Shown: piece after piece, positions 26,380-59,107 of the stretch | Position numbering within the stretch: position 1 is the first letter of the stretch | Layout: every line of letters begins with the position of its first letter | Sequence record: NC_005066.1 | DNA from: Escherichia phage RB49 | DNA length: 64,000 bases | Strand: one strand, 5' to 3' | Position numbers and translations under genes: made by a program | The notes under the pieces: generated by a model | What the model was told of the DNA's origin: nothing | Databases searched by the model: none | The model's input: the letters and a program-made list of their open reading frames with translations, nothing else

Positions 26380-26934
26380 CTAAAAATTTTTAACACCATA
26401 TTCACCAAAATAAAGATCAACCGCTTTGTCATAAGCTCTAGCCGCATCTTCTTCGTTGACATAATACCCAAGAGATATTAGTTTATCATTATTTCGTATT
26501 CTTGCAACCCATTTCTTCGTATGTTTATGCCAGCTAACTCCTTTATACTTGCTTGCTTTATTCTTGTACTTTCCAACGTTACAAGCATTTTTCTTTGCGT
26601 CGGACTCTCTAAGATTGCGCGGTGCGTTGTTTAAAGGATTTCGGTCTATATGATCTATAATTTCTGGTTGTGTTCCATGCTCAAGAAACCATACAACACG
26701 ATGTACATATGGCTTTAAAACCCTCCCATTATCCATAACGATTGCAATTTGGAGATGATCCTGACTTTTAAAAGTTTTTACTTTATCTCCTGCCTTATAA
26801 AACTTTCCTTCGTAATTCTTTCCTCCGGCTCGGCTATTCTTTAAATGATAAAGAATACCCTCATCGTCATGTCTATATCTTTCTCTTATAATTCGTTGCG
26901 TTTCTTCATCCCACAATTTGGAACGTCTACTCAT
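26380..26934 (-). CDS. HNH homing endonuclease with AP2 DNA-binding domain
   Basis: 184 aa; HNH core VHRVVW...HIDRNPLNN...NLR; AP2-like YKGVSWHKHTKKWVARI...LGYYVNEEDAARAYD. Confidence 0.75.
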   Translation of the reverse strand: MSRRSKLWDEETQRIIRERYRHDDEGILYHLKNSRAGGKNYEGKFYKAGDKVKTFKSQDHLQIAIVMDNGRVLKPYVHRVVWFLEHGTQPEIIDHIDRNPLNNAPRNLRESDAKKNACNVGKYKNKASKYKGVSWHKHTKKWVARIRNNDKLISLGYYVNEEDAARAYDKAVDLYFGEYGVKNF

Positions 26935-27024
26935 AGTCTCTTCCTCTCTTCGTTTTCGATGCTCTCACTATATCACAGAAAAATAAAAAGGGAAACCCCT
27001 TTCAGAGTCTCCCTTATAAAGCCA

Positions 27025-27313: not shown

Positions 27314-27547
27314 TTATTTTACCTCTGGGATATAATCAATTATTAAAGAAAATTCATCTTCTGATACATTATAGCTATGTGAGATTGTACCCGTAAAGAC
27401 CTCAAGATCCGGTGATTTGATATTGCACGGATCGATAATCACCGGAACGCCGCAATCTCTCAAAAATAATTTGGCGAAATACGGCACGAGGTCAGTTTCA
27501 AACTCTGCTTCTTCCAGCAAACGGGAAATGTTAATTTTCAATCTCAT
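27314..27547 (-). CDS. hypothetical protein
   Basis: 77 aa ORF adjacent to 55. Confidence 0.45.
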
Positions 27548-28064
27548 AAAATTGGTCCAAGCTAGGCAATTCCTCGGTCAATACATCTTCAACCTTTGGC
27601 GCTTTCGGTTTATTGACCGATTCCTCGTAGTTGTTGATTTTATCGTAAATGTCCTGTATGAATGCCTCATCAGCAATCTGGCACATATCAGCGTCGCGTT
27701 CGTCATATACATGATGCACAAAATATTTGTATTTTGCGGCTGTCGCTGTTCTCTCTTTTTTAATGCGCTGTACAAAAGCATTAAAGCACGCTTGCGTGAT
27801 GTAAGCATGAGGATTTTTATACTTTGTCTCGTCAAAATTAATCAAACCCTTGACCGCCGCTTCGATTCCGTCGTCGATCATTTCTTCGCGCCATGTTTGA
27901 CTATAACCAGAAAAGTTAAAACGACGTGATAGATTTTTAGAGATTTGCATAATTGCTAGGCCGATTTGATCGCTCATTGGAACTTGCCGACCTTGTGCTG
28001 CAATTTGTTGTTTCCAACGGCAAATTTCTTCGTAAAGCTCTTTATTGTTTACATAATCAGACAC
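27531..28064 (-). CDS. 55: late-transcription sigma factor
   Basis: 177 aa; SRRFNFSGY...[30 protein letters not shown] collinear with T4 gp55. Confidence 0.88.
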
Positions 28065-28104
28065 TTCGCACCCTCGCTATTATTTAGGAAATAACCCTTT
28101 CGGG

Positions 28105-29574
28105 CTATTCCCCATTACCATTATACTTTCTTTGCTTAGTTATCCACACTCTAACCATCTCTACAGATTCACCGTCAGACGGATCAAGAGTTTTTCCTTT
28201 TTTCTTCATGCGGTACTTAAATCCGTTAAATCTTGCATTCTCTTGCTCGTTAAAGTCGAACATCTTTTTAAATGATTTTCGCCCTTTACGCTCACCGCAT
28301 TCTAGCGGAATCATTCGGTCTGTTATTACATTGGCATTAGGTAGAAACGTTTTTAGATAATCTACCAACGCCCAATCAGGAACATATAGATTAACATTCT
28401 CCTTGCTCTCGTTGTCTCTCAGGTTACAACGCAAACATAATTGAAATGCTGGTTCCAGATAATCAGACACATGACGCGCTTTCAAAAACTCGTTTGTCGG
28501 GAGATCACAACTATTAGCAAGACCTTTTAAAATATCAATCTCCCATCGTTGAGGGTTAAAGCTGAACATCACAGCAACATTTTTATGATGAATGTAAGAG
28601 TTAAGACCATAAGATCCGTAAGGTATCCGCTCACCAATACCATTTGTACACGCTTCACGGTCCCGATTCACGGTATAAATGAAGTCATCACCACATTCAT
28701 TTTTAACCATATCAACAAGACGTTCAAAGGTATTGTTTGTTTCTGACTGGTGACGCGACCATCGTTCGGAGTCCGTCATAAGGATGATGTTAACTCTATC
28801 TGTATTTTTATACTCTTTGAAATATAGTCTGGATTCTAGCGCACTCGGAACAAAATCGCAATTTGCATAGTATCGTAGATACTTCCCACTATATGTATCA
28901 AAGAGATTTGCACATGCTATCGTAACCTTTTTAAAGTCTCCCCACGTACCGTGTTTGTTATCGTTCAAGAAAACAATTTTCGACCCATTCTTCCGGTGTC
29001 CTTCGTTATGTTTTACCATAACGTTGATTTTCTTCTCTAATAACGCCTCATAAAGCCCTCTAAGAGAAGAATCGATCATATCAGTACCATCCTTTGCACT
29101 TTCTATCTTTTCTTTGATAGCGGCCTTCTCAGAGTCTTTTAGAACTAAGTTCTGTAGGCATTCCGATTCGTCGGCGATTGGTTCGCAATGCTTCGTGATA
29201 AGTTCAAGATTAGACTTAAACGGATACTCATTAAATTCAACCAGTTGAGGAACTTCATCAATGTAAAGAGCATATTCACCAAACATTTTTGAACGTTCCA
29301 TATTAGATAACGCTGTATGTGTAATGAATATCACATCAGCACCGTCTTTAACTGATTGCATTATCGACGCTTGCACTGTCTTAAGGCTTCTTAGTCTGGT
29401 GCTATCAATCAAGACAGCACGACCGCCCATTCTTTTAAACTTATTGTAAGATTGTTCACTTAAAACACGAGATGGCGAAGCAATAACCGCTTTTTCTTTT
29501 GTCTCTAGGACGTGGGAAAGTATAGCATCAGTTTTCCCCGCCGCTGGCAATGCGATTAATGTTTCAATCTTCAT
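28105..29574 (-). CDS. uncharacterised P-loop NTPase (helicase-like N-terminal domain, novel C-terminal domain)
   Basis: 489 aa; Walker A ALPAAGKT at residues 8-15, Walker B ALYIDEV; no T4 counterpart at this position. Confidence 0.6.
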   Translation of the reverse strand: MKIETLIALPAAGKTDAILSHVLETKEKAVIASPSRVLSEQSYNKFKRMGGRAVLIDSTRLRSLKTVQASIMQSVKDGADVIFITHTALSNMERSKMFGEYALYIDEVPQLVEFNEYPFKSNLELITKHCEPIADESECLQNLVLKDSEKAAIKEKIESAKDGTDMIDSSLRGLYEALLEKKINVMVKHNEGHRKNGSKIVFLNDNKHGTWGDFKKVTIACANLFDTYSGKYLRYYANCDFVPSALESRLYFKEYKNTDRVNIILMTDSERWSRHQSETNNTFERLVDMVKNECGDDFIYTVNRDREACTNGIGERIPYGSYGLNSYIHHKNVAVMFSFNPQRWEIDILKGLANSCDLPTNEFLKARHVSDYLEPAFQLCLRCNLRDNESKENVNLYVPDWALVDYLKTFLPNANVITDRMIPLECGERKGRKSFKKMFDFNEQENARFNGFKYRMKKKGKTLDPSDGESVEMVRVWITKQRKYNGNGE

Positions 29575-29860
29575 TAGAAACCCTTACGTCGTGCTTTCTG
29601 GCATTTCTTGATCATTTTATCAGAAATTTCGCGCTTAGGTGCAATCTCTTTCACACCGAAAGCACTAATGCCAAATTCAGAGAGAATATATTCAACTAAC
29701 AATTCACGCACACGCGCTTTACCGATATTCACGCCGTTATTTTTCAGATATGTCTGGCCTTCGACTTGCATCAGATCTAAATCTGCGTCGGTAATAATGA
29801 TTTCTTCCATGCGCCCAAATCGAGAATAAACCATGTGTGCGATTGCATTGTGTACTAACA
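29574..29860 (-). CDS. hypothetical protein, translationally coupled to the P-loop NTPase
   Basis: 95 aa from ATG 29858-29860 with GAGGAA SD; stop overlaps downstream start. Confidence 0.45.
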
Positions 29861-29882
29861 TAATATATTCCTCACTCAAGAA

Positions 29883-30041
29883 TTACTTAATGATACTTAC
29901 TTTACCAGATCCGTGACAATGAGCACAACACCCATCACCACGCAATCCTGTTCCGTTACAGTGTTTACACTTCTTCAACGGTAAAGTCATTATAGCAAAT
30001 AAAGCAATAATGAACACCGAAACTAAATTCTCAATAATCAT
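29883..30041 (-). CDS. small membrane-anchored protein with two CxxCxGxG zinc-finger motifs (52 aa, below cutoff)
   Basis: hand-translated MIIENLVSVFIIALFAIMTLPLKKCKHCNGTGLRGDGCCAHCHGSGKVSIIK; GAGGG SD. Confidence 0.35.
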   Translation of the reverse strand: MIIENLVSVFIIALFAIMTLPLKKCKHCNGTGLRGDGCCAHCHGSGKVSIIK

Positions 30042-30300
30042 AAATCGCCCTCAGTTCTTTATAGCCTCCAATGTGCTCGTTGTCAATGAATATCTGGGGG
30101 TATACAAAACGGAGGCTCTTTGAGTTCAGCCTCCCCGCCAGTTCTTCAATCATATCACGGTCGGGAATAATGTCAACCCCGACCTGCTTGAATACTGGTT
30201 TAAGTGTATACGGAATACCCAGATCATCCAGTAGCTTCATTGCACTAATACAACCATAACAATGATAAGCCTCTTTCGGTATGCCGTATATCTCGATCAT
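30031..30300 (-). CDS. glutaredoxin-like redoxin (NrdH/NrdC-type)
   Basis: 89 aa; CYGC active site and C-terminal PQIFIDNEHIGGY glutaredoxin signature. Confidence 0.65.
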   Translation of the reverse strand: MIEIYGIPKEAYHCYGCISAMKLLDDLGIPYTLKPVFKQVGVDIIPDRDMIEELAGRLNSKSLRFVYPQIFIDNEHIGGYKELRAIYDY

Positions 30301-30773
30301 TTCTCAGCCTTTAATCTTTCTAGTTCTTCTTCCAGTTCCTTGATCCGTTGGTCACGTTCAAAGTCACGCTGTAGCTTAGTGGCGAATACTCGTTTAAACT
30401 GATTGTAATCATCGATTTTAAACACTTCTTCTTCGCCATAGCGACGCACAGAAACTTCGTAGTTATTGAAGAATTGTTGCATCATTGCTTCGGATGATAG
30501 TTCTGCTGATACCACTTTAAAATATTGATCTTCGGTAGGTGAAAACCAATTACAAGCATAAAGATAAACCTTTTCATTGTCTGGACACTGGTAAGCCTTA
30601 CCATCGATTTCAATCACAGAAACATATTCAGGTATACTAGATGAATCAATAGCTAAGACTTTAAACGCACGGTCCCCGATAAACTCGGAGATCACACGAT
30701 TCGCATCACTGGTTGCAAATGCTTTACGCGCTTGTTCGTTTTTCCACTGATAGGTCATACCAACAACAAACAT
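30297..30773 (-). CDS. repeat-domain paralog family protein (1 repeat + coiled-coil tail)
   Basis: motifs VGMTYQWKNE, IEIDGKAY, WFSPTEDQYF; ATG 30771-30773. Confidence 0.5.
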   Translation of the reverse strand: MFVVGMTYQWKNEQARKAFATSDANRVISEFIGDRAFKVLAIDSSSIPEYVSVIEIDGKAYQCPDNEKVYLYACNWFSPTEDQYFKVVSAELSSEAMMQQFFNNYEVSVRRYGEEEVFKIDDYNQFKRVFATKLQRDFERDQRIKELEEELERLKAEK

Positions 30774-30774
30774 A

Positions 30775-31599
30775 TTACCAACCTCGCTCTTTACCAATCA
30801 AAAATTCAACTTCACGACGTTTAATGTCTTCTTGAAGGTCTTTAATCTTCTGGCGATCTTGCATGATTTCATCCATCTTGTCAAGTGCCGCAATGAAATC
30901 ATCGAAACGTTCAAAGGTTTTACCTTCATTTGCTTCGCCAAATTTAACCATTGTCAGGCCGTAACGACTACTAAACAGACGTTTCAACTGTCCAACGATT
31001 TTAGAATCAGTGGTTATAACTTCCAATTCTTCTACTTCACGAAAGAATTTTCTATCAGAATCAATAAACCAGCTAGTTCCTTTATGGTCTCTATCTTCGG
31101 TTGCGCTCATTAGAGTATGGTCTTTACCATCAATTTCAATTACATCAATTTGCCCACATGGACGAACATTTTTAACAGTAAAAGGTCTATAATTTATTGC
31201 TCGTGCAATAACATAATTAAGATTAGATACGTTTTCAGCATAATGACAGAAGTCGGTCATAGCCTTATCATCTTTCCAAGTATAAGTTTTACCAACTTCC
31301 CATTTCTGGGGAACTTCTTCAACTTCACGAAAGAATTTTCTATCAAATGGACTAAAGAAATATGTTGCAGTCCAAATGTCTTTTCCTGTAGCAGTTTTCG
31401 CCGTATGATAAACACCGTCTAGCTCTATTGCATCAATCCAACCGTTACCCTCGATCTCGATGATGGTAAATGGCTTGTCACCAATAGCTGCACTGATATC
31501 GCTGTTAAGTGGAGAAAGAACACCTTCTCCGTTAGTAATAAACTCAGTTTTAGCGTTTTCATCTTTCCAAGTGTAAGTTTTACCAATTTCCCATTTCAT
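30775..31599 (-). CDS. repeat-domain paralog family protein (2 repeats)
   Basis: WEIGKTYTWKDE and WEVGKTYTWKDD; IELDGVYHT and IEIDGKDHT; DRKFFREVEE twice. Confidence 0.5.
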   Translation of the reverse strand: MKWEIGKTYTWKDENAKTEFITNGEGVLSPLNSDISAAIGDKPFTIIEIEGNGWIDAIELDGVYHTAKTATGKDIWTATYFFSPFDRKFFREVEEVPQKWEVGKTYTWKDDKAMTDFCHYAENVSNLNYVIARAINYRPFTVKNVRPCGQIDVIEIDGKDHTLMSATEDRDHKGTSWFIDSDRKFFREVEELEVITTDSKIVGQLKRLFSSRYGLTMVKFGEANEGKTFERFDDFIAALDKMDEIMQDRQKIKDLQEDIKRREVEFLIGKERGW

Positions 31600-31611
31600 A
31601 ATATATTCCCC

Positions 31612-32076
31612 TTAACCGATTTTATCAAGTTCGTTTAATGCTTTCTCAGCTTCCTGTATAGCTTGCACTCTTTCCGGCATTTTGTCAAGAAAATCTTTCA
31701 ACTCTTCAAAACTGGAGATATGACGCAAGGCGTTAGCACCGATAGCCGCATGTGATTTGCATTCAAAGCGGATTTTATAATTATCCATCGCCAATTTGAG
31801 AAGATCAATTAATTTAGATTCTTCTGGAATAATAATTTCTTCAAATCTGCTACGGTCATGATCCAGAAACCAACAAGATAGACCTACATCGGTTGAACTC
31901 ATATAAGTTCCATCATGAAGATAAACAGACCGCACGTATCCTTTTTTCGCATCAACCGACGCAACTTTAAACGGTAATCGCAGATATTTCAAATAATCAA
32001 CATCATACCATTTAAAAAATTGGTTTGCATCTTTTACATCTTTCCACGCATAGGTCTTACCAGCTTCCAATTTCAT
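31612..32076 (-). CDS. repeat-domain paralog family protein
   Basis: MKLEAGKTYAWKD, LHDGTYMS, WFLDHDRSRFEE. Confidence 0.5.
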   Translation of the reverse strand: MKLEAGKTYAWKDVKDANQFFKWYDVDYLKYLRLPFKVASVDAKKGYVRSVYLHDGTYMSSTDVGLSCWFLDHDRSRFEEIIIPEESKLIDLLKLAMDNYKIRFECKSHAAIGANALRHISSFEELKDFLDKMPERVQAIQEAEKALNELDKIG

Positions 32077-32080
32077 AATA

Positions 32081-32608
32081 TCATCTCTCATTTTTGATAC
32101 GTGATTCTAATTGGATCATACGGTCTCGCGTTTGTTTGTATTCTCGGATAGCACCGATCCGGCTAGGCATACCATCCAGTACGCTCTTAATACCTTCTAG
32201 GGTAGTAATTTTGGCAATGCTATTATGCAACCCCATCTTATCGATCAACTGAATGTCGTAGGCTTCCATAAGCAGACCCAGGCGTTCTAAAGTTAGGTCT
32301 TCTTCTTTTTCTTCTGAATCTGGAATCTTAGGTTCAATAGTAACTTCGGTAAAGAAACGACGCTCACCCGACCAAAACCACACACCGGAACAGCCAATAG
32401 GGGATTCTTTTAACGTCATAGAGTCGAAATTACTACCAATAATAGTAATTTCTCTAACATCACCATCATCGTCAAGGTCTTCTACCCTAAACGGGCGACC
32501 AGCCAACAAGTCAACAATACATCTGTTAATAGACGACGAAAATTTAGTCAGTTCGGCTTTCGACGCTTCGCATTCAATCTTGTAAGTTTTACCAACTTCC
32601 CATTCCAT
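32081..32608 (-). CDS. repeat-domain paralog family protein
   Basis: MEWEVGKTYK, WFWSGERRFFTEV; ATG 32606-32608 with GAGGTGA SD. Confidence 0.5.
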   Translation of the reverse strand: MEWEVGKTYKIECEASKAELTKFSSSINRCIVDLLAGRPFRVEDLDDDGDVREITIIGSNFDSMTLKESPIGCSGVWFWSGERRFFTEVTIEPKIPDSEEKEEDLTLERLGLLMEAYDIQLIDKMGLHNSIAKITTLEGIKSVLDGMPSRIGAIREYKQTRDRMIQLESRIKNER

Positions 32609-32618
32609 AATAATCACC

Positions 32619-58745: not shown

Positions 58746-58895
58746 AAGGTAGCGAATCTTCCTTGTCTCCAACCTGCTAGCGGCCTAGCAAGTGAATGCT
58801 TTAGCGTACCGGATCGCCCACATACGCTGTAATAAATGCGGCTAGGTGACGTCCAAATCATTCTAACCGCGCTGTCTTTAGTTCACTATTATTTA
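58746..58895 (-). ncRNA. candidate small structured RNA (not a tRNA)
   Basis: ~150 nt ORF-poor segment between a TATAAATA-type late-promoter match (plus-strand tatttata near 58899-58906) and the terminator; local hairpins GGAAG..CTTCC and TGCTAG..CTAGCA. Confidence 0.2.
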
Positions 58896-59107
58896 TATCG
58901 CTTTCTCTCGCGACGTTTTTGGTCTTCTTCCTTGATAGAGTTAAATGCATCAAAAAGACACATGGCACTAATAATAAACATAACCGTATTTTCTACGATA
59001 TCCCACGGCTTCGCATCAGTACAGATCCCCCAAACGGTAAGAAATGCAAATAAGGCAGAAGAGATCACAAGCATGATACTTGCTAAGATATAAAAAGTCA
59101 TTTTCAT
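58889..59107 (-). CDS. small membrane protein
   Basis: 72 aa, two hydrophobic helices. Confidence 0.4.
   Translation of the reverse strand: MKMTFYILASIMLVISSALFAFLTVWGICTDAKPWDIVENTVMFIISAMCLFDAFNSIKEEDQKRRERKRYK

Follow-up and report, generated by a model that had tools for sequence, protein, structure and literature searches.

A conserved helicase-like ATPase with a predicted XPD/DinG-type fold, encoded next to gene 55.2 in phage RB49 and other T4-like phages

What is the large P-loop protein encoded between gene 55 and the glutaredoxin gene nrdH of Escherichia phage RB49, and does it form a unit with its two small neighbours? We examined this locus in a 64,000-nucleotide stretch of the phage genome (NC_005066.1; hereafter the window), in which positions 28105-30041 contain open reading frames (ORFs) of 489, 95 and 52 amino acids (aa), all on the minus strand. 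An earlier note, made from the sequence letters, had described them as an uncharacterised three-gene module built around a P-loop NTPase and had proposed an anti-defence or DNA-transaction factor. The three ORFs are present as described and the genes are real, full-length homologues of the 489-aa protein being found in 242 phage records (tblastn, 35-100% identity). The 489-aa ORF lies at 28105-29574 and the 52-aa ORF at 29883-30041; the end given for the 95-aa ORF, 29860, was one base off, as its ATG lies at 29861. The 489-aa protein was confirmed to be an uncharacterised P-loop NTPase without homologue in T4, and its features are as follows.

28105-29574, minus strand: gene of the 489-aa protein, a predicted superfamily 2 (SF2) helicase-like ATPase with XPD/DinG-type fold, equivalent to ORF044 of phage Phi1 and to phrog_2467
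29530-29553, minus strand: Walker A (motif I), ALPAAGKT, residues 8-15, with G13, K14 and T15 invariant
29251-29271, minus strand: Walker B (motif II), ALYIDEV, residues 102-108, a DEVP box and not DEAH
28930-29217, minus strand: insertion of about 95 residues (residues ~120-215) that separates motif II from the motif III-like TIAxAN strand, located by DSSP
28594-28620, minus strand: motif V-like YGSYGLNSY, residues 319-327, with G323 and N325 invariant
28417-28443, minus strand: motif VI-like QLCLRCNLR, residues 378-386, with Q378, R382 and R386 invariant
28108-28287, minus strand: basic helical C-terminal tail, residues ~430-489, with helices at 435-438, 443-458 and 468-486

The structural model of the protein contains two tandem RecA-like domains, and its closest overall fold is that of XPD/Rad3/DinG: DinG and XPD structures aligned over 313-358 residues, against about 250 for generic SF2 cores. 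The domain boundaries were taken from the secondary structure of the model (DSSP) together with the motif positions, not from coordinates. RecA lobe 1 would comprise residues 1-119 and 216-255, and lobe 2 residues ~256-420. The insertion at 120-215 contains strands plus two long helices (147-179) and, judged from secondary structure and not from a residue-level alignment, appears to lie in the place that the Arch domain takes in XPD. The C-terminal tail, which spans residues ~433-486 in this layout, follows a low-confidence linker at 426-432. The earlier note had found nothing recognisable in the last ~370 residues and had suggested a novel effector-like domain; this part of the protein is instead made up of the insertion, the second RecA lobe of an XPD/DinG fold and the basic helical tail. 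The same fold occurred in the BFVD library in several uncharacterised phage proteins (phiRSL1, Fnu1, Motura and H101). We are highly confident that the 489-aa protein represents a whole, divergent helicase core of the XPD/DinG-like structural class.

The conservation of motifs was followed in an alignment of 25 family members with 32-74% identity. Both Walker motifs proposed by the earlier note are present and intact, and the catalytic residues G13, K14, T15, D106 and E107 are invariant. Beyond the Walker motifs, T85-H86, T218, Y300/N303/R306, G323/N325 and Q378/R382/R386 are also invariant, with a spacing that resembles SF2 helicase motifs Ic, III, IV, V and VI; E445 and W477 in the C-terminal tail are invariant as well. 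Among 133 distant relatives, D106/E107, G323/N325 and Q378/R382/R386 were conserved in 100%, GKT in 80-89% and P109 in 88%. SF2 motifs I (GKT), II (DE), V and VI (Q..R..R) are thus all conserved in the family. Because these residues are kept in such distant relatives, the comparison argues strongly that the 489-aa protein is a working ATPase, with a catalytically competent SF2 motor as the prediction.

The family nevertheless stands apart from the helicases that it resembles in build. With XPD, Rad3, DinG and CasDinG, which are 5'-3' DNA helicases of SF2, it shares the fold only. The four-cysteine iron-sulphur (Fe-S) domain that is inserted between motifs Ia and II of XPD and DinG is missing: residues 16-105 contain no Cys, and only C130 and C380 are invariant in the 25-member alignment, so no Fe-S domain can be assigned. 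The DEAH box of XPD/DinG is replaced by DEVP, the protein is much smaller than these helicases, and the Pfam families DEAD_2 and Helicase_C_2 gave no match. By its sequence the protein does not belong to the XPD/DinG family, and we regard the protein as a separate SF2 family despite its XPD/DinG-like build. Pfam Herpes_ori_bp (UL9) was not matched either, and NCBIfam gave no match to this protein or to the 95-aa one. The full length was matched by phrog_2467, a family of unknown function (E 8.8e-175, residues 1-489 against profile positions 8-502 of 502), while the Pfam DEAD match was marginal (residues 11-130, 27.4 bits against a cutoff of 26). The hallmarks of DEAD-box RNA helicases are missing: the P-loop has just 9 residues ahead of it and hence no Q motif, DEVP stands for DEAD and CAN for SAT.

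The ~3-kb region is 99.1-99.6% identical to phages Sf20, kvi, GEC-3S, RB49 and JSE, and 57 records match it at 90% or more. Krischvirus accounts for 57 of the 242 records with full-length homologues. The other 185, all below 60% identity, come from phages of Aeromonas, Cronobacter, Enterobacter, Citrobacter, Klebsiella, Serratia, Proteus, Morganella, Erwinia and Yersinia. The six genera whose taxonomy was checked (Krischvirus, Pseudotevenvirus, Angelvirus, Tulanevirus, Bragavirus and Muldoonvirus) are all outside Tevenvirinae, the subfamily of T4, and no Tequatrovirus record was among the 242 tblastn matches.

Further relatives were found by a profile search of 1.84 billion representative proteins, which returned 1347 at E <=1e-3 and 777 at E <=1e-10. 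They form two size classes of about 500 aa and about 800 aa, and 63 of the longer ones have one homologous C-terminal extension of ~360 aa in common, with one invariant Asp and a near-invariant DxD. Pfam PriCT_1, the C-terminal domain of archaeo-eukaryotic primases (AEP), was detected in 3 of 14 extensions (best E 1.4e-4), and PHROG families labelled 'DNA primase' were matched by 9 of the 14 (phrog_9765, best E 1e-12); in relative P0074 the primase match spans the DxD...RxR segment. PriCT_1 was the only Pfam domain found, the catalytic part of the extension having no Pfam match, and a profile of the extension gave no match in PDB. The cultured jumbo phage Atu_ph07 carries such a fusion (helicase hidden Markov model, or HMM, E 2.6e-35; extension HMM E 3.9e-37). 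It emerged by the HMM search; tblastn in cultured phages showed no fusion at 80% coverage or more. Two fusion genes were located in detail.

L042 5995-8283: helicase-primase-like fusion of Atu_ph07, annotated 'hypothetical'
L039 8001-10508: helicase-primase-like fusion on a wastewater contig that also has phage tail-fibre and SegE-type genes

When plasmids were searched with an 806-aa fusion relative, only its helicase part was matched, and weakly, on Sinorhizobium megaplasmids and one Komagataeibacter plasmid. The genome-contig scan found only two close relatives, both on phage-like contigs within bacterial assemblies. Nearly all neighbour genes in Atu_ph07 and PH357 are labelled 'hypothetical', and the N-terminal extensions of relatives P0128 and P0160 matched no recognised family. 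In the large, uncharacterised ~800-aa group (P0063-P0189) the helicase part is N-terminal and the primase-like part C-terminal, so that the usual order, primase before helicase, is inverted.

Kazlauskas et al. (2018, PMC5862659) described uncharacterised proteins of 'some T4-like phages' ('pVOG1685/9714') whose similarity to SF2 is remote and which are related to helicase-like domains found in fusions with AEP primases. The 489-aa family is probably the same as this one, flagged computationally in 2018. Primase-like fusions were likewise found here, independently, among its relatives, with one difference: the primase is N-terminal in the published architecture (Prim+zf-CHC2+helicase), whereas here the helicase comes first and the primase-like domain last.

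The gene order around the 489-aa gene (hereafter the helicase gene) was compared in 36 related loci, representing about 32 distinct phages. In RB49 its neighbours are the following, and the curated Phi1 record names the five genes, in the order of the coordinates, 55, ORF044, 55.2, ORF046 and nrdH.

27531-28064, minus strand: gene 55, late sigma factor (phrog_234 E 4.4e-63 and Phi1 annotation), 40 nt downstream of the 489-aa gene
29574-29861, minus strand: 95-aa gp55.2 homologue (DUF7570), with ATG at 29861 after a GAGG ribosome-binding site
29883-30041, minus strand: 52-aa protein with an N-terminal hydrophobic helix and two CxxCxGxG motifs (phrog_3931 E 4.4e-10)
30031-30300, minus strand: nrdH glutaredoxin (Pfam Glutaredoxin and Phi1 annotation), upstream boundary of the conserved block

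The 95-aa ORF, which the earlier note had left uncharacterised, is by its sequence a clear homologue of T4 gp55.2, with 43% identity over the full length (BLASTP, E 9e-21) and a match to Pfam DUF7570 of 98.4 bits against a cutoff of 27 (E 2.6e-28). It also occupies the same genomic position, between nrdH and gene 55. T4 gp55.2 is a characterised inhibitor of topoisomerase I (Topo I); it also gives R-loop-primed plasmids a higher copy number and benefits phage fitness (PMC4396842). DNA binding and the inhibition of Topo I relaxation are known for the T4 protein alone (PMC4396842), and the RB49 protein is known from its sequence.

The co-occurrence check did not bear out a module of three genes. 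Homologues of the helicase gene were found in 242 records, those of 55.2 in 1091 and those of the 52-aa ORF in 108. A 55.2 homologue was present in 35 of the 36 loci, immediately upstream of the helicase gene in 26 and overlapping its start in 23. The 52-aa zinc-ribbon ORF was present in only three loci, all Krischvirus, and is a lineage-specific neighbour outside the pair. The slot is not an accessory one, as had been supposed: at least six genera have the same order nrdH-55.2-helicase-55, and the 55.2-helicase pair is a conserved part of the backbone block nrdH-55.2-helicase-55-a-gt.5-a-gt.4-47. Gene 55 was found in 26 of the 36 loci; the RB43 group instead has the tail-fibre gene 34 downstream of the helicase gene.

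In RB49 the stop of 55.2 overlaps the start of the helicase gene by 1 nt (TAATG), so the overlap and tight linkage to the upstream ORF reported before are correct. An overlap of 1, 4, 11, 17 or 20 nt between the helicase start and the preceding ORF was seen in 31 of the 36 loci, eight of them with an ORF unrelated to 55.2, and the overlap therefore says little on shared function. Because it occurs whichever gene lies upstream, it suggests that translational coupling is a conserved property of the helicase gene.

The comparison with T4 also corrected the statement that alpha-glucosyltransferase (a-gt) lies in this interval: T4 has 55.1-55.6 between gene 55 and nrdH, with a-gt on the other side of gene 55. 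The T4 counterpart at the helicase position is 55.1 (87 aa, L038 4694-4957), the next gene downstream of 55.2; comparison of the two proteins found no homology. A report cited in PMC4396842 has T4 55.1 acting on host FolD and blocking nucleotide excision repair via UvrA. The position appears tied to DNA repair or transactions in both phages, which may be coincidence.

What, then, does the helicase-like protein do? Fold, motif conservation, phyletic distribution, synteny and the primase fusions of relatives were established here, and it is DNA as the substrate, an unwinding activity, early expression and a role in replication or recombination that we infer. With moderate confidence we read the 489-aa protein as an ATP-driven, XPD/DinG-type accessory DNA helicase for phage replication or recombination. 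Single-stranded DNA (ssDNA) would be bound between the two RecA lobes, and ATP hydrolysis would drive translocation and the unwinding of DNA or DNA-RNA hybrids. The chemistry would be done by K14 of Walker A and D106/E107 of Walker B, with R382 and R386 as putative arginine fingers. The gene would be transcribed together with the pre-replicative DNA-metabolism genes nrdH, 55.2 and 55, and the product would serve as an accessory helicase beside gp41 and Dda, both of which Phi1 also encodes. T4-type phages have non-essential accessory DNA helicases among their early genes, namely T4 Dda (SF1) and UvsW (SF2), and the role proposed here is of the same kind.

Several points weigh against this reading. 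The ties of the protein to known helicases are marginal at the sequence level: PDB gave no match when searched with the sequence or with the family profile, and for the family profile against E. coli DinG hhalign returned a probability of 0.6%. A similar fold does not distinguish a helicase from a translocase or a remodeller. Fusions to primase-like domains are confined to distant relatives (~23-27% identity) outside the T4-like clade. The linkage to 55.2 may be mere inherited backbone synteny, because T4 keeps 55.2 in the same place without the helicase gene. The need for a further helicase is unexplained given Dda and gp41, and T4 manages without the protein. Our literature search found no experimental work on the gene, and every GenBank record labels it 'hypothetical protein'.

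If the protein is an SF2 motor that does not unwind DNA, it could be a translocase on double-stranded DNA or a protein-displacing remodeller of the Snf2/Mfd/RapA type, or else an RNA helicase with phage or host transcripts as its substrate. We consider this unlikely. Every one of the best structural matches is a 5'-3' DNA helicase (XPD/DinG), with 60-100 more residues aligned than for any remodeller; the missing Q motif, DEVP for DEAD and CAN for SAT speak against RNA helicases; and relatives are fused to primase-like domains, which require ssDNA. The protein might also be a decaying or non-catalytic helicase remnant, retained as a structural partner only, in line with its non-canonical motif II (DEVP), the missing Fe-S domain and the curated helicase families that it leaves unmatched save for marginal DEAD. 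Such decay is very unlikely: the catalytic residues are invariant over 35-100% identity, D106/E107, G323/N325 and Q378/R382/R386 hold in all 133 distant relatives, and a full-length ORF has been retained in 242 phage records.

The DNA-transaction half of the earlier proposal is supported by these results, and its anti-defence half is not. That half would have an ATPase driving a novel C-terminal effector and working with the 95-aa and 52-aa proteins as a module of three genes. The Walker motifs would suit such an ATPase, but the C-terminal part is RecA lobe 2 with a short tail and no separate effector domain. PADLOC gave no relevant match (one meaningless weak one), the locus position is conserved across genera and not variable, the 52-aa gene does not co-occur with the helicase gene outside Krischvirus, and the 95-aa family has a known, different function (PMC4396842). 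An anti-defence factor is thus very unlikely.

The conserved neighbourhood raises the further question of whether the accessory helicase and gp55.2 work together. A functional partnership in R-loop or D-loop handling is a tentative idea with a modest chance of being right: gp55.2 would block Topo I and stabilise R-loops, and the helicase would then process those R-loops or D-loops. A bolder version, unlikely in our judgement, makes the pair a device of two parts by which non-T-even T4-like phages start R-loop-dependent replication. There gp55.2 would shield R-loops and negative supercoils from host Topo I, and the DinG-fold helicase would open or extend R-loops (or D-loops), letting the replisome load. 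Were it true, the protein would be the phage equivalent of a helicase that unwinds origins. It would be related to the helicase-primase fusions that other mobile elements carry, and would have been lost in the T4 lineage.

T4-type phages are a reference system for replication and recombination. About 240 sequenced T4 relatives carry this conserved fourth helicase-like gene, which T4 lacks and nobody has studied. The fold, the primase-fused relatives as a probable replication context and the consistent partner 55.2 turn a 'hypothetical protein' into a directly testable enzyme. Annotation of the family would improve in these genomes, many of which are phage-therapy candidates. The gene itself is already in GenBank many times over, and the family is a divergent branch of a thoroughly known superfamily and reveals no new kind of system.

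The expression context was examined by consensus scans. An exact-motif scan of the window for the T4-type late promoter TATAAATA found none within ~19 kb of the locus, and late-gene status of the helicase locus was dropped on this ground. The signals found were as follows.

30149-30176, minus strand: best sigma-70-like promoter match upstream, TTGACA-16-TATGAT with TG, 11/12, inside the nrdH 3' end; consensus scan only
26988-27015, minus strand: intrinsic-terminator-like hairpin after a-gt.4, with a 12-bp stem and T run, the first downstream of the block on the coding strand
48724-48731 and 58890-58897, minus strand: exact TATAAATA late-promoter motifs, the only two in 64 kb

Taken with the neighbouring genes, the promoter and terminator matches fit pre-replicative transcription of the block. 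The two late-promoter motifs are fewer than the ~6 expected by chance, which fits a window mostly of early and middle genes. The 40-nt gap between the helicase gene and gene 55 (28065-28104, minus strand) contains only a 3-bp CCC-GAAA-GGG hairpin, below the call of the terminator scan; Proteus phage Pm5461 (L005 5043-5088) and Serratia phage Muldoon (L044 2922-2948) have annotated terminators between the two genes.

The sequence of the 52-aa protein confirmed its hydrophobic N-terminus (L6-L22) and its pair of CxxCxGxG motifs (C25-G32 and C39-G46), which would form one zinc unit of the kind in DnaJ-type zinc fingers and anti-TRAP-like mini-proteins. It has no J domain and differs from DnaJ also by its N-terminal hydrophobic helix. 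Matches to DnaJ_CXXCXGXG, DnaJ models and RtpA were weak and all far below the family cutoffs; Pfam PF00684 scored 14.6 bits against a cutoff of 32.7 despite the two perfect motifs. The 108 records with homologues belong to Krischvirus, Felix-O1-like phages and one Aeromonas phage. Homologues of this putative membrane-anchored zinc-ribbon protein, ~42% identical, occur in Felixounavirus and not in other T4-like genera, so the gene looks to have been exchanged between unrelated coliphage and Salmonella phage lineages.

Other parts of the window gave minor observations. Upstream of the block, 30297-32617 (minus strand) contains four consecutive ORFs of 166, 274, 159 and 178 aa, equivalent to Phi1 ORF048-051, which hold five copies of a paralogous domain of ~90 aa (W-E-x-G-K-T-Y-x-W-K-D ... 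F-F-x-E-V); the domain has no Pfam match and weak PHROGs matches to goF-like families. RB49-type phages have DNA with unmodified cytosine, and the layout in Phi1 fits: uvsX is followed by gene 43 with one small ORF between (L037 14639-18649), and neither gene 42 (dCMP hydroxymethylase) nor beta-gt is annotated there. Between gene 47 and a-gt.4, a 184-aa ORF of homing-endonuclease type (26380-26934, minus strand; HNH_3 E 7e-12, AP2 E 2e-10) appears to be an insertion relative to Phi1, because Phi1 has only ~90 nt at this place.

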